Assembly (NCBI GenBank): GCA_963575745.1
Contig: CAUYUJ010000303.1
Location: 372,001-436,000 of the forward strand
DNA length: 64,000 nucleotides
From: Prorocentrum cordatum
Taxonomy: Eukaryota
Direction of reading: 5' to 3'
Under the pieces are notes generated by a model. The model was not told the DNA's origin, made no database searches, and was given only the letters and a program-made list of their open reading frames with translations. Each line of letters opens with the position of its first letter. The first letter of the stretch is position 1. Of this stretch, positions 1 through 22,285 are shown piece by piece. The translations under genes and the position numbers were made by a program.

Positions 1-1275
1 TGTTTCCTTTGGCGGCGAGGAAAGCCTAGAAGCCTTCGTGCCCGTCGGAAAGCGCCGCCTGTGCATGCTCAAGGTGGTCCGTGGTCTCAGTGCCGTGAAG
101 GGCGCCTTGAACGAAACGACAATGTTAGAGCAAGTGCTTGGGAAGCTTCGCGTCGGAGAAGGAGACAACGTGGATGAAGCGTCGACTCCTGTGAAAAACG
201 CTTCCGCAGCAGCGGGGGTTGCAGCAGGATCTCCCGCGGCAGCGGGAGAAAAAGGTCGGGATCCCATGGCGGATCTCCTCGGAACCGTGAAGGGCGCATC
301 GAAAGCGAAGCAGGTGGCGGCGCGTCGCCAACCAGAGAAAACCCTTGAGAAACAGAAAATATTGTCTCGAGGCACGCTCTGCCTCTCGCTCCGTGCGGTC
401 GTCTTGGGCGGCGTCGGGCCTCCGCTGACTGATTACATGATGCATGTATGTATATGTTGTGTATGTATGGTGTGTCGACGTATATGTATGTACATACGTA
501 TATGTGTGTATTTATATCTATATAGGTATGTATATATAACGCGGTCGCAGGGGCGTGGCCCGCGGCCCAGGGCGGGGCCCGAGACTCTGGGACAGGACAT
601 AGGGCCTCATCATCGTAGGATGCTCATCATTCTCACCATCGCCATGATGGGGGGGGAGGAGGGGACAGCTACCAGCTGCGCGCTGGCGCCACCGCCGCCC
701 CCCCGCGCCCGCTGGCGCATCCGCAGTGCGGCTGCGGGAGGGACTGCGCCTCAATTCCTGCAGAGGCGGCCTGCAGGCATGTTGCACTTGTGGCGTCTAG
801 TACAAACGCCCGAGCGGCCCGCTTTTTTTTTGGGGGGGCTCTTGCTTCACGGTGGAAGAGGAGACTATCATCATCCCCCGTGCCGCGTTCGCCTTCCCTC
901 GACGACGGCGTCGGCGACTTCCCACATTCTGGCCTTGTTTTCTGGGGAGTGTTCTCGGAGTCGTTCGGGGCGTTCGTTCGTGTGTGCATGCTTCTGAGTT
1001 TTCTGCGCGTCGTTCGGGCCGCTCGTCCTGGTGTGAGTCGTTCGGGCCCCTCCTCGCCAGCCCATCTCACAGCGGCAACCCTCGCGAAGCATGCCGACGG
1101 TCGTGTTTTTTTTTCAGGCGTGTGTCCGCTGGTCCCCGCATATCTCCCTTGTTCCTCGTTCCTCCCGCCCCCTTGTACATCCTCCTTGTGGGGGGATGCG
1201 ACCGTTTGCTTGCCCTGCAGCGCTGGGCTCGAGACCAGAGGGCGGCCGCGTGTGCGCGCGCATGGCTTCGGCATC

Positions 1276-2736
1276 ATGGCAGCCGCAGCCGCTCCGCCCC
1301 CAGACCCAGGAGACGCTCGCCCTGCAAACGCGCCTCTGCGGTTCGGGCACGACCGCGAGGCCAACGAATTTGTGGAGTTTTGGTACCAAGAAGGCAAAAA
1401 GAAAGACCCCGACAGAGTGCTCATGAACCCACGGAAACTAAAGGGGACAATATTCGGATTCGGGTACGTTATGCGCCGCAGCAGCGGCGCGGCTTGCCAT
1501 TATGACTCTGGCAGACGCATATGTAAGAATATTCATTTCTGCTCGCAGTGGCCGTGTCCCAGCGACCATCGTCTGGCGGACGGTTCTGTGGACTACAATA
1601 AGTGGTCAGACTTGCAAGCGCCCTGGCATTTAGGGCAATGCGCGGGCGGGTGGCCCGCAGGAGCGGGGGCCCCCGCAGCAGCGGAGGCGCCGGCCGAGGC
1701 GTGCGAGGTCCCTGCTGAAGCGGCAGCGGAGCCGTCGGTGGGCCCTGCTGAAGGCCCCGCAGCAGCGGGGCCGTCAGCGGAGGCGTGCGTGGCCCCTGCT
1801 GAAGTGGCAGCGGAGCCGTACGTGGGCTCTTCTGACGGCCCCGCAGCAGCGGGTGCGTCAGCGGAAGCGTGCGCGCCTCCTCCTGAAGTGGCGGCGGCAC
1901 CGTGCGCGTGCCCTTCTGCAGAGCCCGCAACAGCGGAGGCGTCCGTAGGTCCTGCTGGCGCGCATGGCGCCGACGCAATCGCCGAGGCCGCTTCCGCAGT
2001 GGAGTCTGCCCTGAAGGACTCCGCGGCAACAGCAGCTCTCTCAGCAAAGGAGGTTGCCCCTGTCGCTTTCCCCCAACCCGCCCCGCTTGCTGTTCGCGAC
2101 ATAGCGGAACCCGTGCTTCCAGGGGCGGAAGTTGCTGCAGTGACCGCCTGTGAACAGACAGCCGCGACAGCAGGCGCTGCGGTTGCCCCTGCAGGCGCCC
2201 CCGCAGCAGCGGGGGCGCCTGCAGGGGCACTTTCAGAACAAGGCCAGAGGTGCTTCGAGAAATTGATGAAGTTGTCGCGCAGTATTCGCGGAAGGCCGGG
2301 GGGAGGCCGAGAGTGGATAGGGTATTCTGCTTTCGTAATCTTTGCGCTTCTGCGGAAGGTGCGCGTCTACGTGTGGGAAGGACGCAACAGAGTCGACCTT
2401 TGCAAAGCTGTCTTGCCGCCGTGGAAACTAGAGGAGTTAACCCGCGAGCCTGCGGTGGACGCGATCGCGCGTTGCGCCGTCCCCCGAGAATCGGGGCCAC
2501 CGGACTGGGCCCCCGTGTCGGAGGAGTATCCTTTGTTTCTATGCAATCATTTTATCGCAGGCGTCTCCACCGACTTTGTGGATTTCACGGGAGATGCTTC
2601 GACGGTGGACGGTTTCTATTCGGCTCTCGGTGTGTTCGTCGTGTCCACAGTCGCAGACGGGGACTGCGGTTTGGATTGCATGTTGCGGATGACCCAGGAG
2701 GTTTCCACGCGAGAGTCTCGCAGGGAGCTCCGCCAG
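1276..2736 (+). CDS. Exon 1 of OTU-like/transposase fusion: Cys/His-rich N-terminus, Ala/Pro/Glu-rich linker, OTU-like motifs
   Basis: ATG at 1276 is in frame with ORF 790..2763. Motifs: EWIGYSAFVIFALLRKVRVYVW, CNHF, VADGDCGLDC, then RRELRQ up to the inferred donor. Confidence 0.6.
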
Positions 2737-2910
2737 GACAGTTGCTCTCTCCGACCACCCTGATCCTTCGCTTCCATCTCTGCTGCCCCCACATGCTCTC
2801 CCCCTCCTTGTCTCCCCATTTTGCCTTCATGCCTCTCCCATCGCGCCCTTCTCTCCCCTCGTGCCCTCCCCACCGAGTCTCCTTGCCCCTCCTCCATGCC
2901 CGCCCGCCAG
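2737..2910 (+). other. Putative phase-0 GA-AG intron (174 bp)
   Basis: CGCCAG|GACA occurs at both boundaries; the interior is pyrimidine-rich and holds the in-frame TGA at 2761. Removal gives RRELRQ-DIADYI, an OTU-like helix. Confidence 0.7.
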
Positions 2911-5274
2911 GACATCGCGGACTACATCGTGCAAAGGGTGCGTCTGGCGCGGTTCCTCGACGCGATGGTCCTGACACAAGAAGTCACGCAGGATGACGTC
3001 CAGGAGCTTCGTCGCCTGCAGAGCGCCTTAGACGACGAAGAACTTGTCCCGCAGCCTGGCCACGCCGCCCCTCCGAGAGCACAGGGCGTTGCCGCCGCAG
3101 CAGCGGCGGCGCCACCTGAGGACTTGGCAGTGGTGGAAGTCGACGCCGAGGCTGTCTGTCAGGAGCTCGTGCAAGCCATCCAATGGTGGACAGGACTGAC
3201 AGACGCTGCGTGCGCCCTGGACGTAGCTCGGGAGTTGATGCCCGCAGAGCGGGAGGAGCAGCTCTTGAGGTACAGGAACCGCGGCTGCGAGCGCAAAGCC
3301 CCCGCCCAGAACAAGAAGCGCGTGGTGGTCCCGTCGCTCCTGTGCTCGAGGATGGAGATAGCGGGTGCTTTCGACGAGCACATGCGCTCTTTAGGCTGGA
3401 CGCCTGGAGACCGCTTTCCGTATGGAGGGGCGCGTTCATTCATGGATGCGTGGGACTGGGGTTCCATGTCCCGTCTCCCTCTCAGGAAGCGCACGCGCGT
3501 TGTGCGGCGCTGGCACAAGGCTTTTCTGTCGTCGAAATACGCCTCCGCAGTAGCGGAGGCTGTTCGGCAGCCGCGGGGACACGAGAAGCAGCGCGGGCAG
3601 GGGCGCCTCCTGAAGTGGAAAGGGCGGAAAAGGATACCACAACAGGGACAGGGCCCAGCTCGAAAATGCCCTTGGCTGCGGCAAGCTCTGTTTGAATGGT
3701 GGAGTTCCATTCGGCACAGTGTGGATTGGAAGATGATCAAAAGTGGACTGCGAAGTACCCAAAGAGAGCCAGCGAAGATAGCAAGGTTCACGCAAAGCAT
3801 GCTCCAGACCAAAGCGTTGGAGCTCATGGGCGAGTACGTCACGCAGCAGCTGCGGATCGGGCAGCGACCCGCCGCCGTGGAGTTGAGGTCGCGCTGGTGG
3901 GCCTCCTGGCGCAAGGAATACGGCCTCAGCATGCGGTGCCCGAACAGGAAGTACAAGTGCCCGCTGCCCGTCTTGGAAGAGCGCCTCGAGCGAGGCTGGC
4001 TGAACGTGTTTAGGGTGCGCGCCGCGTGCGTGCTACTCAACGAGCAGGATCCCGAGATGGAGAACTTCGACCAGTCGCCTTTCCACCACAATGAAACAGG
4101 ATCAGCTGGCGTGAGGACCCTCGCAGTAGCGGGGGTCGAAGTGCCACTGGTGGAGTGCCACGGCGCGGTGCGGGAGCGGTGGACGGCCAATTTCATGACA
4201 ATGAGCGACAAGGATCGACTGCGGAGAGAAGGCCCCCCACCGATGGAGTGCATGTTCAAGGCGGAGGGGGGAGGAGAGAAGTTGAGGCCGCGCCTGCTCG
4301 AACACCTTCGGCGCCGAGGGTTCGGCAGATGGGTGTCGGCGACCACCAGCACCAAGGGGTCTTACCGGACACCGTGCGCGCTCGCGTACCTGGACCGCCA
4401 CCTCCCTCATCTGCCAGAGCCTCCGCAGCAGCGGGAGTGGAGAATTATGATGGCGGATGATCATAGCCCTCACTTGTCCCCGCTTGTGAGTAAGCCATGT
4501 TGGTCTCGAGGGTACGTGTTCATCCCGCACGGGGGCGGCGTAACCCCAATCCTCCAAACTGTGGACACACATCTGAATCAACACGCCAAGCGCGAGTACA
4601 TGAAGAGAGAAGGAGCCGCGCTGCTGAGAGCCATGAGGCTGGGCCAGTGCGTCCCACAGCTGGACAAGTTAGAATGCATTGACTTGATGGTGGAAGTGAT
4701 GTCCCAAATGAGTCTTCACTTGGCTGCGGCAGACGGGTACTGGGAAACTGGTTTCAAGGCAAATCTGTGGGATGCGGACTTGGACGCGCGCATATGCAAG
4801 GAGGCAGGCCATTTCTGGAGAAAGTTGGGGATGCGTGAGAAGGTCGCCGCCGCAGTAGCGGAGGTCGAAGAAGAGGTACAGGCGGGGCGCTTGAGATGGA
4901 CTTACAAAGACATCATGCGATTGGTCCTCCCGCACCCTCGACGCGGCCACTGCGACGACGTGTTCGCAAACCTTGGAGACGACACGGCTCTGGACGAGGG
5001 CGACAAGATTTGGCGTGGCATGGAGGGGGCGGAAGACGCAGCCGAGGGTCTCCGCAGCAGCGGGGGCACTGAGGGTGGCAATTCCGTCGACGCCCTCGAA
5101 GGAGATGAAGATGATGGGAGCGAGGACGACGACGGGTGGAGCGCCGCTGGCGAGTTTGACTACGAATGGGCCAATCAAAGTCTCACCGCAGCAGCGGCGG
5201 GGGAGAGCGCGCTGGAGGCACCGCCTGGCCTGTCGACGTCTCGCATGGAAACTGCGGAGCAGACGTCTGATTGA
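2911..5274 (+). CDS. Pogo-like DDE_1 (DDD) transposase, exon 2
   Basis: Catalytic-type motifs ENFDQSP, IMMADDHSPH and GGVTPILQTVDTHLN. The upstream LFEWW...WWASWRKEYGLS segment resembles a CENP-B-type HTH. Confidence 0.8.
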   Translation, partial: DIADYIVQRVRLARFLDAMVLTQEVTQDDVQELRRLQSALDDEELVPQPGHAAPPRAQGVAAAAAAAPPEDLAVVEVDAEAVCQELVQAIQWWTGLTDAACALDVARELMPAEREEQLLRYRNRGCERKAPAQNKKRVVVPSLLCSRMEIAGAFDEHMRSLGWTPGDRFPYGGARSFMDAWDWGSMSRLPLRKRTRVVRRWHKAFLSSKYASAVAEAVRQPRGHEKQRGQGRLLKWKGRKRIPQQGQGPARKCPWLRQALFEWWSSIRHSVDWKMIKSGLRSTQREPAKIARFTQSMLQTKALELMGEYVTQQLRIGQRPAAVELRSRWWASWRKEYGLSMRCPNRKYKCPLPVLEERLERGWLNVFRVRAACVLLNEQDPEMENFDQSPFHHNETGSAGVRTLAVAGVEVPLVECHGAVRERWTANFMTMSDKDRLRREGPPPMECMFKAEGGGEKLRPRLLEHLRRRGFGRWVSATTSTKGSYRTPCALAYLDRHLPHLPEPPQQREWRIMMADDHSPHLSPLVSKPCWSRGYVFIPHGGGVTPILQTVDTHLNQHAKREYMKREGAALLRAMRLGQCVPQLDKLECIDLMVEVMSQMSLHLAAADGYWETGFKANLWDADLDARICKEAGHFWRKLGMREKVAAAVAEVEEEVQAGRLRWTYKDIMRLVLPHPRRGHCDDVFANLGDDTALDEGDKIWRGMEGAEDAAEGLRSSGGTEGGNSVDALEGDEDDGSEDDDGWSAAGEFDYEWANQSLTAAAAGESALEAPPGLSTSRMETAEQTSD

Positions 5275-5949
5275 TGAGAACGTATTCGTCGATCGCTGAG
5301 GAGTTGCGCAGCTGGGGCGACATCGCGGGGGCCACGTTCATGGAGACGCAATTACGGAAAGAACGGAGGCGAGTGCGTGAAGTGTCGAAGGAAGATCCTG
5401 GGGTTCAGCGGGCCCTCGCAGCATACGAGGACGCCCGCGAGGCGACGCTCAGAAACGAGAAACGACAGCGGGATGTCGAGGCGCGGCGCAGAGAAGAGCT
5501 AACCCGCCTGGGGGACGACGTAAAGAAAGCGCGCAAGCTGCTGAGGACACAGCAAGCCAAACTCTTAGACGCAGAGGCAGCCATAGATATCAAACACAGG
5601 ATGAAGCATGTCGGGTTATCCGAGCTGGGCGCGGGCCTTCGCAGCTGCGGAGGCGCGGCGGGTCGAACGTCGAGGTACGACGCGCTGAATCGCCTTGCGA
5701 TTTTGGGTTCTGGGCTTTCTGCAGCTCAGCGGTCAGATTTTGATTGGTTTCGGCGGGAATGGGACGCCGCTGGCATGGAGGACTTCGGTGGAAAGTGGCC
5801 GGAGACGTTTGCCACATGGTTGCAGGAACGTCATAGACGAGTACTTGGGGGGCAACCCGAGAGCTTTCAGCATGTTTGTGCACAGTGAGACGCGACGCCG
5901 TCTGTCTGGCTCCCTGGCGCTTGCGCCCCCTGCAGCTGGGGGCCTCTGA
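5271..5949 (+). pseudogene. Frameshifted coiled-coil C-terminal continuation of the transposase gene
   Basis: ORF 5271..5888 overlaps the transposase stop; protein-like sequence (FATWLQ / NVIDEYLGGNPRAF) continues in another frame to 5949. Confidence 0.45.
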
Positions 5950-6235
5950 GAGGCGCGGCCCGCCGCAGCAGCGGCGAGGCGCGGGGTGTGAGTTCGGGCA
6001 GCAGCCACTGCTCTTCCACCTGCCTGCGACTGAGGTGCCGCGTGCGCGCGCGGACGTAGCGCAGGCCTTGCGCAGAAGAAACAGGGAGGAGGGGGGACGG
6101 GGGAGGAGGTGAGAGGAGGGGGAGAGCAGGCAGGGGGAGAAAACCACGCGGGTGTCGATCACTCCGCCCCTCCTCCTGCTCTCCCCCCTCCTTCTCCCTG
6201 ATCTCTCCTGGTCATTATATCATTCCTCTCTCTAT

Positions 6236-6458
<223 letters not shown>

Positions 6459-6585
6459 CGCCCTTTCCTTCCCTATCCGCCCCGTCTTCCTCCTCTTCGC
6501 CCCGTCCCCCTCCTTCCACCGCCGTTTCGGCCCCAGGAGTTCGGCTCTGACGGCCGCCCCCCCTGCAACGCGGGGGCAGGGAGCG

Positions 6586-8654
6586 ATGGCCGCGGCCACC
6601 AGCAGCAGCAGCAGCCCATTGGGCCCCGCAGCAGCGGGGCCTCGGGGCCGACTGACGGCAGTGTTCACAGCGAAATCTGGGAAGGTTTGGCGACCTGTGG
6701 GTGGTCAGGCAGAACCCTGGAAGGGTCCTTGGGCCCTTGTGCCAGAGGGCGCCCCCGCAGCAGCGGGGGCTGCGCTGCCTGGCGTTTCAAGCTCAGCAGC
6801 GGCGGCGCGATCAGAAGTTTCTACGATACGCGCCCGCCCAGGCGACTCCGTGGTGGATCCGAGCGATGACGAAGAGCCTCAGGAATTTAGGGGCTGCAGG
6901 CCGCCCGACGACGTCGAACGGCGCGAATGCGTTCTTCGCGACACCGTCCCGCCAAAGTTCTTCTGCGAACGAAGAGCGGCTGACGTGAACATGCCACGGA
7001 ACGACAACGTGGGCAACCTTTCCGTCCTGTTCGGGAACTGGGGCCCCATGCCGAGCGAGACCAACCACGCGGACCAGCGGCGGAGACTTGAGTTGCAGCT
7101 GCGGCATTGCCCTGCTCTCGTGGCGTGCTTTGCGGAATGTGAGGAGCAGATGGAGTCAATCCTACAGCGGCCAGGGAGACCACCGCCGCTGCAGGCGGAC
7201 GCCCCCGCAGCAGCGGGGGCGTCAGCAGCGGAGGGCCAAAGCAGCAGCAGCGGTGGGCCTTTTGTCGCCCCCGCAGCAGCGATGGCGACAGCAAGAGGAA
7301 GTCGTGCTGCGAGTGTTGGCGATTGCCAACAGCTCCAGAATCGACCAGAGTACGAATACTTGACCCTGCGCGGGCGTGAGGACAAGTCCTTGTGCATCGC
7401 TGCGCGCGCAAATCTGTGTTACGAAATGCGGCTGCTCCACTGGGAAAGGAGCGTCGACGGCCACTACAAAACAGCAAGAGGGCGCAAGATGGAAGCGTTC
7501 TCGAGGATCATGGTGGTTGAGATCTACTTCGATCAAACCTACGCCCACTTCGGCTCGACAGTGCGGGTGTGCGCGGTGCACCTCCACCGCGACACGGCGA
7601 AAATTCCAGAGGCTTCAACGAGGCTCACAAGACGTGGTGGCCGAGGTTGGCGACCATCTTGCAGGACAACAGCGTTGACATCCTTTGTGGGGATTTCAAC
7701 ATGGCGCTCACACAGACGCTGCCGAGTCTTCGGGGTCTAGGCATGCGATTGGAGACGGCAGCAGCGTACTTCTGGCGCGGATTGGACGGCACTCCGTGCT
7801 TGGGCAGCTGCTGCATCTTCGTTCTCAACAGGCCTGGCGAGTACACCCTGTGCTGGCCGCTGGGCGCCGTGCACGGCAGGGACGAGGCGGGGTTGCTCTT
7901 CGCACGCAAGTCGGTGATCGGTGAGATCGGGTACCGTAACAGAAGCAAGGCAGAGGCCCCCGCAGCAGCGGGGGCCTCCACCAGCCCATCATCGCAGCCG
8001 ACGTGCTGGCACCACAGCCAGAACGGAGGCCCTGGGATGCCTTACTCTTGCTACGACCCGAAAAAAGACGCCCGCGAGCACCTCCAGGATTTACTGACCC
8101 AGTCAGAGGAATGCCAACGCAAGATCCAAGAGACGGGGCGTGAGAAACTGAGGCGCGCCGAGGCTGAGGCTAGAGGGGGCCACCGCTTCTCTAGCAATCG
8201 CGAGGTGACCCTCTTCCGCGCGTTGCAGAAGACGTTCCCGCCAGAGACCGTGGAGGTGGAGGGGCGCTGGCACGGCGGCGCCCACTACCCTCTCTTGCTC
8301 CAAATGCGCATGGCCAGCGTGCGCTCGCAGGGGAGGAAGCAGGAGAGAGCCAAAGAGAAGAAGGACAGGCGCGCCCAGAAACAGCTGGCAGCTGCGCTCA
8401 GGGCGCCGCTGCCGCCCGAGCAGCACGGACCCGAGCGCCAGGCGCCAGAGCAGCACAGCGAGAGGGACGAGCAAGACGAGCGCGCCCAACAGGCGTGGCG
8501 CACGCCAAGATGGGCAGACGAAAGCGCGGACGACGGCCGCGACAGGCCCGCGGCTGGCGATGGAAGGTCGCGGCGGGGGGTTGAAAGGGGGAGGGAGGGA
8601 GAGGGAGGGTGGAGCACGGGGAGGGCAGGAGGGAGGAGAGGGAATGAGGAATAG
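6586..8654 (+). pseudogene. EEP (endonuclease/exonuclease/phosphatase, APE-like) protein with one frameshift near 7600
   Basis: Ordered motifs LSVLFGNWG, CFAECE, VCAVHLH (ORF 6586) and VDILCGDFNM, GGAHYPL (ORF 7569). The frames join across the A-run in GCGAAAATTCC. Confidence 0.65.
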
Positions 8655-9510
8655 GCTGAGCAGGACGAGGGATGACACAAGGAAGTGAGTGTCGGAAAGG
8701 GGCGGGAGTTGACAGGGAGGGGATACTTATAGAAATAATTACTTATCACCCCCAAGGTGGCAGCCGACCCCGCAGTGCCCATCTCCAGGGCAGGGCTGGA
8801 GCAGCGAGGGCAGCGCGGCGCCGCCAGCTACATCTCGGACGCGATCGCTGCCCTCGGCCACGAGCCGCCAGAGCTCCCGCAGCAGCGGAGGCCACAGACG
8901 CCACGGCAGCAACCAACAGACGGGGAGTGGCGCAGGGATGAGTGGTGGCGCACCAAGGAGGGCGAGGAGCGCGAGTGGCAACAGCCGAGCGGCGAGGCTT
9001 CTCGCTGCAGGACCGCATGGTCGACTCCGCCTGGCGCGACATGCAAGTTGCATTCGGCAGCGACCAACGCCCCAGTGACTGGTGGAGCAGCCACAGTGGG
9101 TGGAGTAGCGGCCAGGGGCACTGGGAGGCCACGACCACGACATCTTGGAGGTGGGTCGAACACCCCCCCGAGACCAATCCCTGGGAAGAACTTAGCTGAA
9201 CCATCGCACAGGAGCCGCCCCTCCGCAGCAGCGGATGGAGGCCTCATCGGCCGAACGTCGACCCTCCGCAGCAGCGGAGGCCTTGCCAATGCATCGTGAG
9301 CGGCGGCGACTCGCGCGCGCCGTCGTGCTCGGCGACCGCTGCCCGAGCGGAAAAGGAAAAAGAAACGGTGCTTTCATCGGCGTTGTCGTTGCCTCCTCTC
9401 CTTCATCGTTTTCTTCTCCCTCCCCCTCCAATCCCCCATCCCGCTATCACATTTTATTGTCTCCAATCGTATCGGGAGCTCCCGTGGCAGAAGAGCACCC
9501 GGAACGAGGT

Positions 9511-9595
9511 CCTCCGTGACAGAGGGGGGGCATCTTAGACCCCCTCTGTGACAGAGGGGGGGCATATTTGACCCCCTCTGTGACAGAGGGGGGGC
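9511..9595. repeat. Three palindromic units (CCCCTCTGT-G-ACAGAGGGG), period ~32 bp
   Basis: Visible directly; the first copy is degenerate. Confidence 0.9.
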
Positions 9596-9921
9596 CAAAA
9601 CACAAATGATCACTTTAATGCGGCTTCTGGATTACCTGCACGGCGGCCACGTAAATACCTTGGCAGGTCCTCATGGCGTATAGGCAAGCAGTTTCGAGTT
9701 ATAAAGTGGTGAAAGCCGCCAGGAGTGACCCAGGCTTCTCACGCAGACGAGCTGATTGAACTGCCCCCAGAGCTCGATTCGATTCGATTCCTCCCTACCT
9801 CCACCGTCTCCCACTCTCGCCTCCCTGCGCCCAGCCTCCTTCGTACCCTCCTTCCCTGCCCCAGTCGCACGCCATGAGCGAGAGGAGGGGGGAGTAACAG
9901 ACAGGGGACGGGACGAGGACG

Positions 9922-10321
9922 GATGATGATGATGATGATGATGATTATTATTCATTATGATGATGATGATGATGATGCTGGTGATGATGATGATTATGAT
10001 GATGATGATGATGATGCTGATGCTGATGATGATGATGGTGGTGGTGATGATGATGACGATGAAGATGATGATGGCGATGATGATGATCATGATGATGATC
10101 ATGATGATGATGGTGATGATGATGATGCTGATGATGATGCTGTTGATGACGATGACGATGACGATGATGTTGATGATGATGATGATGATGATGAGGAGGG
10201 GGATGCGGAGGACGATGAGGATGAGGAGGAGGAGGAGGAAAAGGAGGAAAAGGAGGAAACGAATGAAAAGGAGGAGGATGAGGAGGAGGAGGAAGAGGAG
10301 GATGAGGCGGAGGAGGAGGAG
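9922..10321. repeat. (GAT)n followed by (GAG)n microsatellite
   Basis: Visible directly in the sequence. Confidence 0.95.
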
Positions 10322-12685
10322 TGTTCGGGAATGTTCGGCGACGACGAAGTCGAGGATCGCACGACGAGCGAGCGATGGCGCCACATGGGCCCCGAGGCCT
10401 CCCGCGGCCTAGTGTGGCGGTTCCTTGCCCTGCTTCATACACGATAAAACATATTTCCCATTCTTAGTGGGTTCCTGGCATTTATCAAAAAGGCCCTTGA
10501 TACTACCCCCGTCAGTACCTTTGGTACGACGGCCACATCTAGTGCACCACCAGAGGCTAAATTTCTCAGTGAATTGCATGATGTGGGTGGGGTGAATGGT
10601 TATTGCACCTACGCGGATGGCTGTGCCTCTCTTCCGTTTGGACGAGGCTATGCTACATTCTTTAAGCCAGTGTTTAATTACAGCTCCTCCAGCGTTCCTA
10701 CTGACTTGTTCGTTACACTTGCTACACTGCCATCTACATCGCGAGCGAACGAGGAGGTGGGGGCTAGACTCGAGGACGGCTCTCAACTCAGTCCTGGCTT
10801 GTTTACGTTGCTGTCTTGTTTTATACTTTTCTGGGATCATGGCCTGGCTGTCGCTCTCGCACGCGTCGAGGTGCGCACGGATCAAGCGTCGCCAGACCAA
10901 GCACTGAATAGCATGTACCCAGTTGTAGCATTGCATCTGTGCCCCTGGGATGTCGTGCTCGGAGGCGGCGTCGGACGCCAGCTCGTCGGCCAGCAATTTT
11001 CCCAACCATGCCTCGGCACTGACCTGTTTCTTGACCGCCTCCTCCGCGTCCATGTGGCTCGTGATGTGTCGCAGCCCGATATCCTTGGCTGGGTTCATCT
11101 CGGCAGGAGCTCTTACACACAGTGCGAAATACACAGGGTCCCAGATGTCGGCATTCCTCCTGCGATGACCATGTCGAAGGTGTAGCTCTTTCTGCCATCC
11201 GTGGGTTGTAACGTCTGAATCAGCATAAATTGTGAGCGGTCCCGTTGTCGACCTGATCGCTTGTAGCACCGCCCACAACTCCGCTCGATTGTTGGTCTGG
11301 CGCCGTCCAGGTAGTGGTCCATGTTGTGCTGCTCGGATCTTCCATTCTTCTTGGTAGTGGAGGCATACCCATGACCATCCGCATCTGCGATATCTGCGGT
11401 CGCTCGATTGGGATCCACCACTACCGTCCGTTGAAATAACTGTGGGGCCTGTGATCGTGTGGATCGTGTCGACGTTCTCAATCTCGCCGATGTTGGTCGG
11501 GTTGTTCTCGGTGGTGCACTCTGGGGGAATCGTCCATTATTTCGGGCATAGACCACGGAGCCAAAAACAGGGCACCACCTTTGCTCCCTCAGCAGCTCGA
11601 TCCTTGAGTGTGTCTGATACTGAATAGTCTTTATGGTCCTGCCGCTGTGTGCAATTCCCCCATATGCGATGGTAGTCGTCTGCAACTTCCCCACACGAGC
11701 ATTTATCTTCAGCTTCTTCTCCAAAACATGCTCGTCTCCTAGCTGGTGTCCACATGGCTGCGCACGCTGCTGTCTGCAATACTCCAGCCTCTCGATGTTT
11801 GTCTCGGCGACGCATCTGAAGAACACGTTTACGCAGATCCGTGGTATCGATTCCCTTTTCCATGCCTTGACCGAGCCAGTGCCGAGAAGCTTTGTCCCAG
11901 AATACTGCTTGCTGGCTCTGGAGAACTGCGTGGATAACGTCCGTAGGATCTTTAGTGTGCGCGTGCTCGTCATCTCCCATTTGCCATTCATTGCCTTCAG
12001 GATCCAGCCAAAGGACGGGCGACAAGGGATCCCAGTTAACTTGCCATAACGAAAGTATGAGACTGCCGATCATTCCACGTCCTAGCCTCCATCGGTCTTG
12101 TGGCGTCTTACTCGCAAGGTTGCGGTAGATGGTACCCCAAGCACGGCAAGCTCCCTCGTGAAGGTCTGGTCTGTGGCACCACGTGTCGAACCATGTGTTG
12201 AGCTGTCCCTTCAAGATGCTGACAGCTGGGTCAGCTTGCTCAAGGTCAAGGTATGTTTGAAGACACCTTCCAAACCAGTGCTTGCCAATAGCCTTTGCTG
12301 CTGATCTGCGGAGTTGTGTCGTGGCTGTCGGTGGTTCGCCATAGATCTTGGTGCCATACAAGAACGAGGCGGTCGGGCCTTGCACCACAAGGATTCGTCC
12401 GCGGTGCCGATGTAACCTGCGTAGCTTGGTCCTGATCTTCCTCATCCTATCGGTGGCTGTCTTCACTCGCTTGGTGTGCGTGGGTCGCGTTCTTGCAACA
12501 GTGCCAGCACGATCGATTCCAAGGTCTCTTCCAGATGCGGCTGGTTTAACCGCACCTCCCTGTCGTCTGATCTCGTATGCGATATCGTGCGTCATCTGCT
12601 CGTTAGTAGTGATGATAACCGATTTGTCTTCCATCTCTAAGCCTTGCTCGGCTAAGCACTTGCTGTACTCGACCGTGGCGTTGAT
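10322..12685 (-). mobile_element. 5'-truncated non-LTR retrotransposon A (RT C-terminus/thumb, CCHC-like, RNase H, C-terminal Cys motifs), decayed
   Basis: ORF 11537..12784 has RDLGID, FLYG and CSCG..DDYHRIWGNC. ORF 10409..11278 has RNase H-like TIYADS, RNADIWD, HITSH, LADELA and CxxC motifs. Confidence 0.8.
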
Positions 12686-14011
12686 GAGGAGGAGGAGGAG
12701 GAGGAAGAGGAGGGGGAGGAGGAGGCGTAGCACGACGACGACAACGGTGGCCCTGGCGACGAGTGCCATCATTGCCACGGCCACGACGGCGACAAAAGCC
12801 GCTCAAGAACCCGGCCTCCAGGCCTCTCCTAGCCGCGTTCTCCGAGCCGCGTCCAGCCATGGCGACACGAGAATTTCCAGGGTGCCCGAAAATTTTCAAA
12901 ATCGGGACGACGACGACGACGACGACGCCGACGACGACGACGACGACGGGGGCCCACGGCGCGCTGACGTCCAGCGAGGCAGGCGAAAGGGACGGTTTGG
13001 GAAACGGGTCGGGGAGACAGCTGCTGCATGCAGCCGGCCAGCTCTGGCCCCGCCGCTGGGCACCTCTTCCGATGCACGGCCGCCTCCGGCGCTCTGAGGC
13101 GCCGGGGAAAGCCAACCATGTGTCCCGCTCCTCTTTGCTACGTAACCCTGGGCACCACCACGACGACCACGACGACGACAAGCACGAGCACGACGAGCAC
13201 GACGACCTGGCCGCCGAAGGCCACCTGGACGCCGAGGGCCGCCGAGTGGCCCCTGGGCGCGCCCGGCGCTCCGCGAGCGGCGGCTGGCGCACGAAACGGG
13301 CGCGGAGGGGCGGGCGCCGCCTTCCGCCGAGGTCGGGCAGCTGTTCGAGTCCCTGGCGGCGCGGGTGGCCAGCGACCTGGGGCGGTGAGGGCCGCGACGC
13401 TTGCGATGGTCGCCCCGGCATCGGGGCCGCGCGCGGCGGCCCCGCCCTGGCTGGCCAGCTCCGAGGCGGGTGAGCTGCCCATCGTCACCGCCCAGGCCAG
13501 ACTTCCGACACCTTGAGGGACTCAAGGCGGCGGTTGTTCACGCAGTTCCCGGCCTCTCGGGGGCCGCCCCGGGACCGTCAAGACACTGCCCAGGCTGAAG
13601 AGCCGGCCCCGGGGAGACGGTCCAGACCTCCCTGGGGGCCCGGCAATGGAGAAGTTCAAGACGCCGGATGCCTGGGAAGGGATCGATCTTCGGCGACCTC
13701 GCAGGGTGGCCAATGCTCCATACAGTGGGGGCCCATGCCAAGAAACGCCCTGCTTGCCTCCAGGGTGCCCTGAGTGTCTTGGCATTCGATGGCTCTGCGA
13801 TGGAAAGCGTGACGTTCCCGCACCAGAAATCCATGGACGCCCCTGGGTCTCAGGGTTGGGTCTCTGGTGGGAGCTTTCTTGTGGTCGGCTCTCCACGGTA
13901 TCCCCCCCCCCGGCCGAGGTCCCCGAAGATCGATGCCGCAGGCGGCGGTGATGGACAGGTCCCCGCGCACCAGCGGGGGGGCGGAGGGAGGGGGGTCGTC
14001 AGAGCCCCGAA

Positions 14012-14225
14012 TCATCAGGGGCAACTCGGGTCAGGGCTAACTCGGGTTCGCTTTTCGGGAATCCGAACCCGGGCTACCCCGGCCCGAGTTACCCCAGATA
14101 ATTCGGGCGTCCAGAGCCCCAATTCATCAGGGGTAATTCGGGTCAGGGCTAACTCGGGTTCCTATTTCGGGAATCCAAACCCGAGTTACCCCGGACCCGA
14201 GTTACCCCGGATAACTCGGGCGCCC
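14012..14225. repeat. Two tandem ~110-bp foldback units
   Basis: GGGGTAATTCGGGTC...AACTCGGG pairs with CCCGAGTT...GACCCGAGTTACCCC. A second locus is at 53580-53795. Confidence 0.85.
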
Positions 14226-15194
14226 AACACATGCGAATCCAGCCTCGTGTGTTTCCGGCGTCCTTCGGGAGGGGGAAAAACACACGGACACAATGAATTA
14301 TCGACTCCCAGGAAGATATGGGAAACTATGGGAAGTGGGGGGGAAGGCGAAAATCCCAAAAACACGGGGAAGGATGGGAAATCCTGTTGTTTGTGTGTAT
14401 TTACTTGTGTGTCCCAGGGCCCCTTCAGTCCTGCTGCACGCAAAGGGTGACCCCTCCTGCACGCAAAGGGTGACCCTCCGCCGGGATGGCCTCCGGTGCG
14501 CGCCAGCTTTCGAGGGGCGCGGGCGGGGGGAGGCTGGCAAGCCCAGGCGCGCCAGGCGCGCACCAAAGGTCACTCTTGCCTACAGGGACACTGTAGCGTG
14601 AAGCCGAGAGCAGCAGCAGGCGATGGATAAGGGGCAACGTGGGGGTGGTTAGGCTCGGGGGGGAAAGCATACGCCCAATCGCCCATGGAGAGCCGATAGG
14701 GGACCGATAGCTCACCTCGCCCAGGAGCGCTCGGTTTTGCCATCGTCGGCCCATCGCCGATCCATCGGCGATGTATCATCGATTTCAGATCGATTCTCCC
14801 CCTTCCCCTGGGCCGCTCCCCCCTCGATCGTCGGGGGACGACACCACCACCACCAGGGGGGCCACCTCCAGCGAGGAGGTCCACGATGCCTCCCCTGGCT
14901 GGGGATAGGCGATGTCCCGAGCGAGTGGGGGGGGACCACACCAGCAGGGGGGGACCCCCTAGCTCCTCCCGCTGGTGATCCCTGGTGGTGGCGGTGTCGT
15001 TTTTTCTTGCTCCTGTATCGCTCCCCCTATCTCCCCCTCAAAGGGAGGCTGAGGGCGCGGAGCCGCGGAGCCCCCAAAGCCCCGGGCCCAGTACAACCTA
15101 ACGGTTGCTTCCAGGTTCGGCCCACGAGGGCGCGGCTGTGGTCTCGCAGCGTCTCGCGGAGCGCCTGGGGGGGGGGAGTGGGCGGAGGAGGGAG

Positions 15195-15345
15195 GAGATG
15201 GAGGAGGGGGTGGAGGAGGAGGAGGAGGAGGAGGAGGAGGAGGAGGAGGAGAAGGAGGTGGAGGCGGAGAAGGAGGAGAAGGAGGAGGAGGAGGAGGAGG
15301 AGGAGGTGGAGGAGGAGGAGGAGAAGGGAGGAGGGAGGAGGAGGA
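15195..15345. repeat. (GAG)n tract
   Basis: Visible directly in the sequence. Confidence 0.95.
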
Positions 15346-18300
15346 TTCGCTGAGGATTCGTTCGCTTTCGGTTGGTCGAGGCGGCCGAGGGCGCGGCGAC
15401 GTAACCCTAGGAGGCACCCTTCATCCCAGGCCTGTCCTGGGCAATCGTGGGCCTCAAAGAATATGATCGGGGGTGGACAGAACCCCCAACAGTGACACGT
15501 CGATTAGTGAATTGTCCGTTTTCGGTTCTCGAGAGGGCGCCGTGGCCGTTATTTTCCAGGGTTGCGCCCGCCAGGTTTGGGCCTCAGGTCGTTTTCACTA
15601 AACCACGTTTTACTAAAGGGAGGTCTGTCCATCCCCGATATGATTCGTGGTGGGGTGCCACAAACGTTTCAAACGGCCAGCTAAGACCCTAGGACTACCC
15701 CAGGGCAACTGGAAAGTAAACCTCTCCGTCGGTCCCTGGCGTACCTGGCACACCTTCGACAGAAAGCTACTCTAGGCAGGCACACCATCTGGTGGCCTTC
15801 GGCACGGGCCCTCTGGATCCGATCTCCGAGCACCGAAGGGGGCGCGGGAGGGGGGACCACAGGGCCAGGTGGGGGCTGTGGAGGGCCCACAGGGTCATCC
15901 ATTCCCCCACTAGGCGTCGGGGCGGAAGCGGCTCTGGGCCCAACGGGCCCCAGGGCCCTCAGAGGTGTCCTCGAGCCCGTGGCCGAGGACCCCGACGTGC
16001 GCGGCAAGTTCCAGAATGTCCGAAATCAATGTGTATCTCTGAATGTACGTGGCCCGATGCCAGGCCTCATGCTGATCCATTTGAGCCCCACGCTTAGCGT
16101 GGGTGACCGCTAGATTAATGCCTATGAAATACTGGGGCCCCATCTGAACCCTTTGGGCCCTGGTGGCACTAGCTTTAACCGTGTGCCATATGATTCCTAG
16201 CGGCCCGATCCCTCCGTTTTCCTCTACGAGCTTCCAACAGCGCAGTCAGACCTCTTTGCGGGCTGTGTCTGCGCGCGCGGCCCACGCTGGGCCCTTCTCG
16301 AAGCCGTCGATCACGGCCTTGCAATCATAATATATCTTGACGGGTAAGCAAGCCCGCTCGAGGACCTTGGCGATCACCACCAGCTCACTCCTGTAGATGG
16401 ACTGGTCGCTCTGGGGGCCCTCGAGCGGGCCGTACGCAGCATACTGCAGCTCCTGGTGCTCGTCCAGCTGGACGAAGGCCCGGCCTCCTCGCCGAAGGGC
16501 TGGGGACCCGCCGTACAGGAGGCTGCCGTCGGTGTAGATGTCACCATGCACAAACCCGATGAAGTCGCCCTCCACGGCGCTGGTGTCCATGGAGGGCAGG
16601 TCCCACAGCCTGGACTCCTTCGCGGGGTCGGGCGCCCGGCCCCGTCCCCAGAGCGCCTCGGACGCTGCACGCTGCGCCTCCGATGCTCCAGGCCACCTCG
16701 CCGCCCCGCGGTGACATATGTGATGTCCTCCCACAGCTCGTCTGTGTTCAGCTCTGGCTGCGCACGTGAAGGTCCTGTGGCGGTCCGTACCTGCTCCGTC
16801 GCGGCACGCCTTGCAGGTGTTGTCCTGCGCGGCGCCCTTGTCGTATAGCCGTTGCCGCGGCCATGCGCCCCCGCTCCAGAGACTCTCGTCTTCTGCTCCA
16901 GCGTCCAACAGGCAGTTCGCTGTCGCTTGAGCAGCGCACGCACGGGTTCGACGAACAATGTGGTGATGCCGTGCTTCTCCCCGTGCTTGCCGAGCCACTC
17001 TTGCCTGAGGCTGTCCTCCGTGGCCCTGCGGATGCACTGATTCAACTCCTTGATCGGGGGCGTCCTGAGGTCCAGGACCTCTTCGCCTATGGTGACGCTG
17101 TGGCCGCCTGCGTCTGCCAGCCCAGTCCCTTCGTCGTCGCCACGAAAGCTTCCGTTGGCCCGCGCTCCTGCAGCCATGGGGTCTTGGCACGACCCACTCG
17201 GTATACCCACTTCTTCCAGGCACCCTGGAGCTGGCGCAGCAGGTATGACTGGCCGTCGGCCTCCTGCTACGCCATGGTCCAGTTGACCAGCGGCTTTACG
17301 TTGGCGCGGATGCCCGGGTCTGGGTCCTCGGCCAGGAGCACCAGCGGCGTTGACTTGCCCATGGTGTTGCCCCTGAAGGAGGTCGCCACGCTCTGCCGCA
17401 GGCGCACCAGCGTGGAGCTCGCCATGCCCATGACCTGCACCACGTACATGGCAGACGGCACCCTGCCTAGCCTGATGATCGCCTGCGTGGGCCCCCCGCG
17501 CGTCGCATGCGCGGTATGCGGTCCCGCCGCGCTGTATACTTGCTCGCCCTCTTGCTGAAGGCGGTGGCCCGTCGCCTCCTGCCCGCTGCTGTGGCGACGC
17601 CCAGGTGGCCCGCGTGCCGCGCCATCCTGACGCCCATCGGTCTCACACGCTTGGCGAGGCCGTCCTGCAACGCGGTGGCCGATGCCACGGTGGCCGTCTT
17701 ACCCTCCGCGCCTTCGGGGACCTTCATGTCCAGTCCCTCGAACATGTCGATGAGCCGCTGCGCGACCTGCGCGTGCCAGTGCTGCACGGACATCCTCGCA
17801 CCTCCCGCGGCGACCGCAGGTCGTCGAAGAGGAGGCACAGCGATGCCCATGGGTAGTCCGCGACCTCGCCGTCGAGCTCCCCGAAGGTGACCATCTCGAG
17901 GCAGAGGTACGCGAGGCGGCTGCCCGCCACGACGCTTCGCGCCCGCCCCTTGCCCTCCGCGCACGCATTGTCCAGGACGATGCGGCGCGCTATGGAGTAG
18001 ATGCGCAGCACCATCTTGAGGATGACTGCGTTGAACCCTGAGCGGGTTCCCGCTTGCCACACCTCCTTGTGCGTGACGTACTCGAAGCACTTGACCAGGT
18101 CGAAGTACGTGACCGCGTACTCTATGCCCTCGGCCACCGTGGACTCGCAGAACAGCGCCTGCTCCCACGCAGCCCTCTCGCTGGACCGCCCGCGCGCCGC
18201 CCAGTCGCAGGGCTTGCGGTTGGCGCCCTCCCAATACCTGGCGCGCGGCATGCGGATAGCCTCCCACGGCCTCGCCAGCTCTGGCATCAGGCCCAGGTTG

Positions 18301-21300: not shown

Positions 21301-21330
21301 GCGAGAGGGCCCCCGAGCGCAAAATGGCTG
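15345..21330 (-). mobile_element. Full-length decayed non-LTR retrotransposon B: ORF1 (RanBP2-like zinc finger plus coiled coil), ORF2 APE-RT-CCHC-RNase H
   Basis: ORF1: WRCEPCKVYN. APE: INANTL, LGQEL, GGDFN, TRDYF. RT: YFDLVKCFEYV, SVVAGS, LFDDL. Then CKAC..HRTFTC and RNase H DIYTDGS, RSEL, IYYDCK. Many frameshifts. Confidence 0.88.
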
Positions 21331-21472
21331 AGGAGGAAAAGGGGGGAGGCAGGACGGAGGGCGGAGGACGGAGGACGGAGTACGGAGGACGGAGGACGGA
21401 GGACGGAGGAGGGAGGAAGAGGAGGAGGAGGAGGAGGAGGAGGAGGAGGAGGAGGAGGAGGAGGAGGAGGAG
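21331..21472. repeat. (GGAGGAC)n / (GAG)n tract
   Basis: Visible directly in the sequence. Confidence 0.95.
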
Positions 21473-22256
21473 CAGCGAGCGCATGAGGGGACGCGCCGAG
21501 CCGGGATTCGGGGCAGAACCAGACGATTGGGAAAAGGTGAGAAAGCACAATCTCTCACAGACAAGGCGGGGAATACGAAAGGGCAGGGCCTATCATATCC
21601 ACCAGCACGCGCCCGCCGACGGGCCCATGCAGCAGAATCAGGCCAGGAGAGCTGACCTGGGACCGGGGCCGATTGAATGACCGGACCCCGCAAAGCTACG
21701 AGACACAAAACAAGTTAATCACAAATTCAGGCCACTAGGCCAAGCCACTCCACCGCAGGATCCGACACGAGCATCCGCCTTGGGAGCGGGATATGATGCT
21801 TTCGGCCTTCATTGGGATGGCGGCCAGAGGCGAGATTGTTTCGCCTCCATCTATTCTGAGGGTTCCCATCAAAAACCTTGGGGCCCTCACACTCATTGTA
21901 AAGCTGAGATCGATGAGCTCGTTCCGAAAACGACCAGCAGCGCATGCGTCCGACCACGTCGCCCGCTCTATAGAGCACGTGGCCCCTCGAGGCCCGAGGG
22001 GGGATCGGCCCCTCACCAGGGAGCACCGTGCTGGGAGGGGCGGCGTTGGCCCTCGCGGTGGCCGCGGCCAATCTGGGGCGCTTGTTCGAGCCAAGCTCGG
22101 GTCCCCGGGCGACGGCGGCCTCTCTAATGCGGGTCTGGACCGCAGGTTCGAAATGAACGCGCGGCTTCGCGCGGCGGGGAGCCCTAATGGATGCGTCTGC
22201 CACCTCGTCCTCAGGCATCCTAGTTTTGCCCGCGATCCGAACAATCGGGCAGGGGC
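21473..22256 (-). mobile_element. 3'-end fragment C of a related non-LTR element
   Basis: GHVLYRAGDVVGRMRCW..LYNEC..GRHP resembles the C-terminal His/Cys motif of A (HIMQF..WWCTRC..LFDKC..GKEP) and B (GHQMV..FCRRC..LSSC). GAG tracts flank it. Confidence 0.55.
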
Positions 22257-22285
22257 GAGGAGGAGGAGGAGGAGAGGGAGGAGGG

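Follow-up and report, generated by a model that had tools for sequence, protein, structure and literature searches.

The left end of the 64-kb stretch of Prorocentrum cordatum DNA analysed here (hereafter the window, 64,000 nt of GC-rich eukaryotic DNA) carries the remnant of a gene that we call c3, a transposase gene and a gene for a protein of the endonuclease/exonuclease/phosphatase (EEP) fold. Between positions 1 and 9634 every long conserved open reading frame (ORF) is on the plus strand. We consider that this region is probably a degraded copy of a large multi-gene pogo-like DNA transposon (about 13 kb or more), of which it would represent roughly the right-hand two thirds. The copy starts inside the element, whose left end is beyond the left edge of the window; at least 9.6 kb of the element, with three genes or gene remnants, are in the window. 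The original prediction, made from the sequence alone, placed at positions 1 to 9600 a pogo-like element with an OTU-transposase fusion and a stand-alone EEP/APE-like nuclease, in a region with one shared hairpin motif and no reverse transcriptase (RT). We recovered the co-oriented transposase and EEP genes, the absence of RT matches and the hairpin. The extent was revised: the right end is at about 9634, and the element is larger, with c3 upstream, passing the left edge of the window and reaching at least 13 kb in related loci. These are 80 metagenome loci retrieved by a profile scan (389 kb in total, named L001 and so on), whose six-frame ORFs we searched with hidden Markov models.

Transposase and EEP genes

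Four ORFs of the window (the C-terminal part of 790-2763, 2821-5274, 5271-5888 and 5695-5949) are pieces of a single gene, since long homologues join them; full-length homologues of 1200-1400 aa cover all the pieces. Using ORF 2821-5274 as a query we found at least 96 homologous proteins (clusters at 90% identity) of up to 1400 aa. Nearly all came from marine and other metagenomes, and none had a precomputed Pfam domain. The L001 contig, with 81% nucleotide identity, has a single open frame over the whole gene, and its ORF matched the window in frames 1, 3 and 1 (tblastn). Relative to L001, the window copy has a 1-nt deletion around 5271 and a 1-nt insertion around 5825.

We modelled the structure of a homologue of 1116 aa using an alignment of 54 sequences (pLDDT 79.9). 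The top Foldseek match of the model was the mariner transposase Mos1 (E 9e-5). In an exhaustive structural comparison the catalytic domain of Mos1 matched with Z 13.8 (191 of 201 residues aligned, root-mean-square deviation, rmsd, 3.5) and that of Metnase with the same Z (191-192 residues aligned for the two, rmsd 3.5), followed by Sleeping Beauty (Z 11.8) and the retroviral integrases (Z around 9). Full-length Mos1, including its DNA-binding part, matched model residues 307-774 with Z 13.5 and rmsd 8.7. Three aspartates were invariant in 32 and in 54 homologues (D392, D521 and D557 in protein P0001). Their codons are at 4069-4071, 4456-4458 and 4564-4566 in the window, and 35 residues separate the last two (DD35D). 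The catalytic domain is thereby modelled as a Tc1/mariner-type RNase H fold with an acidic triad, and the C-terminal 200 residues of the homologue as a long coiled coil. The sequence profile of the protein had nothing significant among the PDB chains (best E 0.61). The only recurrent Pfam matches among 32 family members were all below the curated cut-offs, i.e., HTH_Tnp_Tc5 in three (best E 2.8e-4), DDE_1 in two (E 0.063) and HTH_psq in two (E 0.1), and the protein of L071 weakly matched DDE_1 (E 0.024). These weak matches form the pogo/CENP-B domain set. Given this set and the DD35D spacing, the label pogo-like is reasonable, for a family that is far from any curated model.

The fusion of the transposase to an OTU domain was moderately supported. 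The N-terminal domain has a conserved DGDC and a conserved histidine upstream of the cysteine (a permuted order), both present in the family consensus. Residues 1-212 of the model matched a bacterial OTU deubiquitinase (6w9s_A, Z 7.9, rmsd 6.6, 134 residues aligned), which ranked 37 in the match list of the whole-protein model, a list dominated by other domains. Neither Pfam nor the PDB sequence profiles matched an OTU domain in the window ORFs or in the family members. An OTU-like N-terminal domain is therefore plausible but not established.

The stop codon that divides ORF 790-2763 from ORF 2821-5274 falls inside a CT-rich segment of 174 nt (2737-2910), which is missing from more distant homologues such as P0005. 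The segment has an identical 10-nt word, CGCCAGGACA, on both sides (2731-2740 and 2905-2914), and its sole splice-like reading is GA..AG. We infer that it may be an intron. A 174-nt intron with a flanking 10-nt repeat and GA..AG ends resembles inserted sequences of the "introner" type with target duplication. The same segment is present in L001, where it is open in frame. A 16-nt piece of the dinoflagellate spliced leader had one match with three mismatches in the window (0.57 expected by chance) and none in the 80 loci.

ORFs 6586-7740 and 7569-8654 form one EEP gene, and are out of frame with each other because the A-run at 7599-7602 lacks one base. The window copy also has glycine for aspartate at 7803-7805 and cysteine for glycine at 7812-7814, within the conserved DSCG motif. 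Only one of the 24 EEP homologues had a precomputed PF03372 match, and in a Pfam scan 3 of 30 family members matched this profile (best E 1.3e-5). The model of an EEP homologue has a high-confidence core. Foldseek matched it to 97 PDB chains at E ≤ 1e-3, the first being mouse TDP2 (E 1.3e-7). Structural comparison gave 38 chains at Z ≥ 8 (top Z 17.0), and among the matches listed all were EEP-fold enzymes. Bacterial EEPs, TDP2, CNOT6L, PDE12, Nocturnin and ANGEL2 scored Z 16.0-17.0 over 216-234 residues, e.g., 16.7 for TDP2 and 16.5 for CNOT6L, whereas the LINE endonucleases of L1, TRAS1 and R1 scored 14.1, 13.7 and 12.7, within the range of 12.7-14.4 covered by AP and LINE endonucleases together. 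The family consensus conserves the N, E, D-x-N, D and H motifs, and long N- and C-terminal extensions are conserved as well. The protein is thus modelled as an EEP-fold enzyme that is structurally nearer to the TDP2/CCR4 type than to the APE or LINE endonucleases. The "EEP" half of the earlier label holds, whereas "APE-like" is not specifically supported.

Pfam profiles had little to say on the region itself. The eight main ORFs had no match at E ≤ 0.1, and of 36 further ORFs, taken from the two strands and with 34 inside the region, a single one had a match, of low complexity. Among these 44 ORFs, 42 of which are within 1-10384, we found no RT family. Rep and helicase families were likewise undetected by Pfam, both among the window ORFs and among the products of the transposase, EEP and c3 genes and of geneA and geneX, which are described below.

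Companion genes, boundaries and other copies

The linkage of the genes was studied in the related loci. In 17 of them the sequence continues for 1 kb or more past the transposase gene; nine of these have a co-oriented EEP homologue there, eight lack it, and L009, outside the 17, has one as well. Hence, the EEP gene is a frequent accessory of the element and not a universal part of it. The c3 gene (around 380 aa) precedes the transposase gene, co-oriented with it, in nine of the ten loci with at least 2.5 kb upstream, and a partial c3 is found in nine shorter loci. In the exception, L074, a Copia-type element adjoins the transposase gene. The protease, EEP and c3 keep their positions across homologues that are only 30-40% identical, which argues that they are functions of the element and not passengers. 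The original prediction had proposed one multi-gene unit of over 9 kb, and had pointed to co-occurrence of the two genes in many copies as a check. The linked and co-oriented EEP genes, the hairpin shared along the region and the common stop of the sequence at 9634-9636 (both described below) support this proposal, with both genes in a single mobile unit that has several genes and exceeds 9 kb.

In the window c3 is a remnant. The c3 protein of L012 matched positions 17-148 (tblastn); the C-terminal half of c3 is at 863-1306 in L001, and window positions 303-1267 do not align with it. The best match of the c3 profile among the PDB chains was a designed repeat protein (E 0.032), and the ESM Atlas gave no usable match for c3 or geneA. 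The genes upstream of c3 vary with the lineage: geneA in L041 and L013, geneX in L033 and L046, and an HMG-box kinase gene in L072. The geneA product has around 790 aa (L041:1673-4051, L013:2-2179) and a conserved N-terminus (HPxNRGG...EEANH...YGTLSHSHLLL). Its family comprises 1050 cluster representatives (50% identity) at E ≤ 1e-3, with no sequence-profile match in the PDB and only scattered single Pfam matches among 34 members. The gene order of L033 is geneX, c3, transposase, EEP. L033 and L041 have 13.2-13.6 kb and four to five genes.

Some loci depart from this arrangement. At the place expected for c3, L074 has a Copia-type ORF on the minus strand (1446-5450, with RVT_2 and a weak rve match), probably a nested insertion or a truncation. 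In geneA's place, geneX is a proline-rich ORF conserved between L033 (1034-2440) and L046 (1246-3102), which in L046 contains the word GDFNMAL, resembling the active-site motif of the EEP family. The gene upstream of c3 in L072 (1030-2538) matches HMG-box and protein-kinase profiles of Pfam, and a gene similar by eye is downstream of the transposase in L019 (3272-4615); either cargo particular to certain lineages or tandemly arranged units could account for it. An EEP fragment precedes all the other genes of L072, at 190-402. In L043 the last hairpin (4338) is at the end of the transposase gene, and the sequence beyond (within 4335-7087) is AT-richer and has no EEP gene, so that some family members may end directly after the transposase gene.

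The right boundary was established with contigs from four public runs (X1, X2, X3 and X8), which we aligned to window positions 6450-9900. Run X1, from a named organism, gave 1597 contigs on this 3.4-kb stretch, at 90-100% identity, and single-organism runs contain multiple variants of the sequence. The summed word depth, which is a property of contigs and differs from a copy number, was 226.6 (X1) and 590 (X3) in the bin 9582-9697, and fell to 0 and 4.26 in the bin 9698-9813. The X3 contigs leave the window sequence at 9634 (four contigs, agreement 0.54) and 9636 (two contigs, agreement 0.62), and continue with mutually differing sequences. The final shared letters are TA, at 9633-9634. Since the shared sequence stops there and the continuations disagree, the right boundary of the element is at 9634-9636.

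The ends of the element carry palindromes. L033 (13,172 nt) has arrays of one palindromic unit of around 38 nt at both ends, with unreadable flanks, and because the two arrays share the same unit it looks nearly complete. In the window three near-perfect palindromes, 32 nt apart, occupy 9512-9592. Some copies elsewhere have one unit fewer, and contigs of X3 and X2 have a junction from 9555 to 9587 that skips 31 nt. In L021, L053 and L041 the EEP gene is followed by two to three tandem repeats in subterminal position, with units of 31-46 nt. The terminal palindrome had four single matches in genome contigs, all in unrelated bacteria, which we took as chance.

Other copies show which lesions are particular to the window. 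An extra A after 7599 restores the EEP frame in other copies (depths 262.7/265.3 in X3, 20.9/20.9 in X2 and 78/373.9 in X1), and all four runs have 7804 G>A and 7812 T>G, which turn the GSCC of the window into the DSCG of the family. The family thus has intact members besides the decayed copy in the window. This copy is pseudogenised by three frameshifts, the loss of one catalytic aspartate and the loss of half of c3. Where the window differs from other copies, G>A (G in the window) is the largest class in every run (23, 19, 19 and 12 places in X1, X2, X3 and X8), followed by C>T (12, 10, 11 and 5); the reverse A>G is found at 10, 9, 8 and 5 places. This is a strand-asymmetric excess of transitions. 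The family is abundant in metagenomes of marine eukaryotes and nearly devoid of Pfam coverage.

Features of the element copy in the window, with the evidence on which each was delimited
Feature	Positions	Strand	Basis
c3 remnant, N-terminal block through the DPM motif	2-330	+	tblastn; alignment with 16 c3 proteins
OTU-HTH-DD35D transposase-coiled coil gene, pseudogene (predicted domains; OTU-like part plausible)	1276-5949	+	full-length homologues; tblastn; L001 alignment; fold
Three tandem 84-nt repeats, variable N-terminal region	1671-1943	+	repeat search
Candidate OTU-like cysteine-protease domain; DGDC at 2656-2667	2263-2736	+	family consensus; fold match
Putative CT-rich intron, 174 nt, GA..AG type	2737-2910	+	absent from homologues; splice sites read from DNA, not RNA
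Predicted helix-turn-helix (HTH) DNA-binding domains and RNase H-fold catalytic domain	3178-4920	+	invariant Asp mapped from P0001; fold
(CT)n-type microsatellite between transposase and EEP genes	6172-6499	.	repeat search
EEP-fold gene, pseudogene	6586-8654	+	family alignment; fold; Pfam PF03372
3' non-coding stretch, with hairpins at 8877, 9223 and 9266	8655-9511	+	
Three subterminal palindrome copies, 32 nt apart, CTCYGTGACAGAGGGGG core	9512-9592	.	repeat search
Right terminus of the element	9593-9634	.	sequence shared with other copies ends at 9634-9636
21 hairpins CCGC-RGYN-GCGG (starts: 204, 234, 1476, 1673, 1757, 1841, 2201, 3095, 3545, 4423, 4850, 5052, 5186, 5963, 6626, 6755, 7205, 7960, 8877, 9223, 9266)	204-9277	+	motif search

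ORF 8757-9299, in the 3' stretch, has no relative among the 80 loci (0 high-scoring segment pairs). Just past the right end of the element and a (GAT)n tract (9915-10328), the minus strand has LINE-like ORFs (10409-27058), with Pfam matches to RNase_H at 22358-23299 and RVT_1 at 23961-25151; an RNase H-like second ORF at 10409-11278 has no Pfam match. Elsewhere in the window there are a C2H2 zinc-finger ORF and a GT17 glycosyltransferase ORF.

A hairpin repeated on the sense strand

The hairpin motif noticed earlier is confined to the element. The word CCGCAGCAGCGG has 18 exact copies in the 64-kb window, all on the plus strand between 204 and 9277, when 0.10 are expected (none of 100 shuffles reached 18), and zero copies in the remaining 54 kb. 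The degenerate pattern CCGC-RGYN-GCGG has 21 plus-strand sites, with starts from 204 to 9266, and none on the minus strand of the whole window. The loop is AGCA in 18 of the 21, AGTA in two and GGCA in one, and most stems are longer by one to four C:G pairs. Each of the first three units of the 84-nt repeat holds one hairpin (1673, 1757 and 1841), and no gene or spacer of the region is free of the motif. A relaxed pattern had one match outside the element, at 26188 (CCGCGGCGGCGG), in a GGC-rich stretch, and this was taken as chance.

The orientation is the same in the related loci. In their 389 kb the pattern occurs 740 times on the sense strand of the genes and 20 times on the antisense strand. 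By reading frame there are 390, 164 and 54 sites, with 132 outside ORFs; the density is 2.03 sites per kb within ORFs and 1.47 elsewhere. The commonest frame encodes Ala-Val-Ala (AVA), the most frequent tripeptide (644 observed, 102 expected). At these sites the second alanine is GCG in 86% of the cases (background 31%), the preceding two bases are CC in 62%, and the next base is G in 83%. Database homologues of the three families (transposase, EEP and geneA) are six- to tenfold enriched in AVA, and geneA is itself full of AVA hairpin sites. Several sites are conserved in position, e.g., 30 of 54 transposase proteins have AVA within one 15-column bin.

The loop and the stem vary in different ways. 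The loop is nearly constant inside an element and changes with the lineage: AGTC in 19 of 19 sites of L030, AGTT in 19 of 20 of L021, AGTG in 25 of 29 of L053, and GGTG in 15 of 16 of L069. L001 and L002 share the AGCA loop of the window, and a few elements are mixed. In L033, L046 and L063 the constant part is C-A-GC-TGTR-GC-G (with a bulged A), between variable flanks. The stems of the L033 lineage covary: over 35 distinct sites 83.2% of the cells are paired, against 62.3 ± 1.9 when shuffled (none of 500 shuffles reached the observed value), with four to five pair types at each of four positions, and sliding the partner destroys the signal.

Two simpler accounts of the hairpin were ruled out. 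A protein motif does not fit, as the sites are present in all three frames and in non-coding DNA and have fixed synonymous positions. A symmetric binding site on double-stranded DNA is contradicted by the 740:20 orientation and by the pairing kept while the stems of L033 vary. Judging from these sequence patterns, the hairpin is best taken as a predicted structure on single-stranded nucleic acid. For the loop to change jointly at 10-30 scattered sites, either a co-evolving reader or a homogenising mechanism would be required. Tentatively, and with rather more doubt than confidence, we suggest that the hairpin might be a lineage-specific cis "barcode", i.e., 10-30 copies of one exact tetraloop hairpin, at positions conserved in part and running through the coding sequence of the element, read on the transcript or on single-stranded DNA (ssDNA) by a protein of the element (c3, geneA or the N-terminus of the transposase). 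If so, the barcode would be a system for self-recognition, or akin to a packaging signal, in a DDE transposon, and it would imply a ribonucleoprotein or ssDNA stage outside the textbook cut-and-paste cycle. Irrespective of its reader, the hairpin behaves as a strongly constrained signal at the nucleic-acid level, given its single strand, the covariation of its stems, the constraint on synonymous sites and the concerted change of its loop.

Proposed cycle, alternatives and known systems

The mobility enzyme of the proposed element would be a pogo-like transposase of the IS630-Tc1-mariner group (DD35D), with an OTU-like domain fused at the N-terminus and a long coiled coil at the C-terminus. By analogy with its enzyme family, the element might move by DDE cut-and-paste into TA. 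The co-oriented genes may be co-transcribed, and the terminal palindrome arrays are likely binding sites of the transposase. The accessory proteins could serve the element, the protease in processing or in host deubiquitination and the EEP in the processing of ends or RNA. The hairpin, found every 0.3-0.9 kb and overlapping coding sequence in any frame, consists of a variable lower stem followed by a C:G pair, a clamp of GC/GC and, as its loop, an NGYN tetraloop. It may act in cis on single-stranded nucleic acid, most likely the transcript and possibly ssDNA, and its reader could be an element-encoded protein whose specificity co-evolves with the loop.

Several points weigh against a multi-gene pogo-like transposon. 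Since the window begins inside the element, no left end, pair of terminal inverted repeats (TIRs) or target-site duplication (TSD) was shown for this copy. The EEP gene is absent from eight of the 17 informative loci, and the depths of the contig words are not copy numbers. The OTU assignment combines a motif with a middling structural match and lacks a sequence-profile match. Transposition is deduced from the enzyme family, and the binding of the hairpin by a protein, like the preference for RNA over DNA as its form, is inference only. Finally, the architecture is far outside the range of 1.2-5.2 kb and one or two ORFs given for pogo elements in PMC7386202.

The lack of a TIR pair or TSD for the window copy would also be expected if the region were a cluster of host genes, in which a domesticated pogo-like transposase and the neighbouring EEP and c3 genes had been amplified by segmental or tandem duplication and were not autonomous. 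Tandem arrays could equally be reflected in the EEP fragment upstream of the unit in L072 and in the HMG/kinase-like gene downstream in L019, and pogo transposases are often domesticated (PMC7386202). Such a cluster is quite improbable given that the contigs of X3 share sequence up to 9634-9636 and then diverge, that X1 has so many variant contigs on 3.4 kb, and that decayed copies are found beside intact ones. The catalytic DDD is invariant across 32-54 diverse homologues, L033 has palindromic arrays at both of its termini, and the unit of L074 adjoins a Copia-type retroelement, all of which count against it as well. In an alternative of a different kind, a non-LTR retrotransposon would have inserted next to an ordinary pogo element, to which it is unrelated, and left the EEP ORF behind as its remnant; the original prediction had itself named a remnant of an RT-bearing element as one outcome that would undo it. 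EEP endonucleases are typical of LINEs, and the minus strand nearby has ORFs for RT and RNase H of the LINE type (Pfam matches within 22358-25151). We give this alternative hardly any credence: EEP homologues are in the same place and orientation in ten diverged loci, the hairpin motif runs through the EEP gene, the 44 ORFs in and just past the region have no RT family match and neither have the gene products of the related loci, the best EEP matches exceed the LINE endonucleases by 2-4 Z units, and the long extensions of the EEP family are conserved at both ends.

The region could also be a module of a virus-like or episomal element, with capsid and replication genes outside the contigs, a DDE enzyme acting as integrase, and hairpins serving as packaging or replication signals. 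In L041 the hairpins extend over the full 13.6 kb and into a partial fifth gene on the left edge; scattered stem-loops that keep the loop and vary the stem may resemble the packaging signals of single-stranded RNA (ssRNA) viruses; and neither geneA nor c3 has a fold recognisable by sequence. We nevertheless think this unlikely. A query with the single protein P0001 had no match among 2.9 million viral contigs, a fold search of BFVD returned only transposases of giant viruses, with no OTU or capsid match, and Pfam detected no family of capsids, polymerases or Rep. L033 is apparently bounded at around 13 kb by its terminal repeats and has only four genes. Self-comparison of L041, L033, L046, L013, L021 and L053 showed no overlap of the contig ends that would suggest a circle.

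A multi-gene pogo-like transposon, our preferred reading, would add to the mobile elements of eukaryotes a large family, widespread and left unannotated by current domain libraries. It would widen the Tc1/mariner-pogo group, with its single-gene elements of 1-5 kb, to sizes of at least 13 kb and four or five genes. The pair of OTU and EEP domains, known beside the Rep/helicase of Helentrons, would recur here beside a transposition enzyme unrelated to it, suggesting a shared need for these activities.

In a full-text literature search we found no description of a pogo element with an OTU domain, of the hairpin word or of this architecture. Pogo transposases are described with 300-977 aa and typical spacings of DD29-59D, with DD35D in the Passer and Fot families (PMC7386202). 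The element in the window resembles pogo and Tc1-mariner elements in having an RNase H-fold DDD domain after predicted HTH domains, the DD35D spacing, and a right end at which the shared sequence stops on TA. It differs from pogo elements by its protein of 1200-1400 aa that starts with a putative OTU-like domain and ends in a coiled coil, by its four or more co-oriented genes over at least 13 kb, by its ends made of palindrome arrays and by sense-strand hairpins throughout.

Helentrons rely on strand-specific terminal hairpins. They are also the known class of eukaryotic DNA transposons that recurrently carries both OTU and Exo_endo_phos domains: the Helitron-like elements 2 have an EN domain (Exo_endo_phos, of the apurinic-apyrimidinic type) and OTU domains together with Rep/helicase (PMC11417382). 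The premise of the original prediction that APE-like domains in transposable elements normally accompany RT was in this respect incomplete. Helentrons differ from the element described here in their Rep/helicase (HUH) movement, whereas here there is a DDD transposase and no Rep or helicase by Pfam scan, and in the type of their EN, since the EEP modelled here is structurally nearer to the TDP2/CCR4 type. The EEPs of TDP2, CCR4, Nocturnin and PDE12 are its best structural matches, and the N, E, D-x-N, D and H motifs are kept. Relative to these enzymes, the identity is 10-15%, the usual S-D-H reads G-S-H, the long extensions are of low complexity and the gene is inside a transposon.

Finally, ssRNA viruses have dispersed stem-loops that act as packaging signals, and the yeast RNase III reads hairpins with AGNN tetraloops. 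Here the hairpins are in a DNA transposon in which no capsid or RT gene was found, their stems have 4-9 bp, and one lineage has GGTG loops and another TGTR loops with a bulged A. The likeness to both systems may lie in short hairpins that are numerous, confined to one strand and superposed on coding sequence, in which the loop is kept while the stem varies, and most of whose loops fit AGNN.

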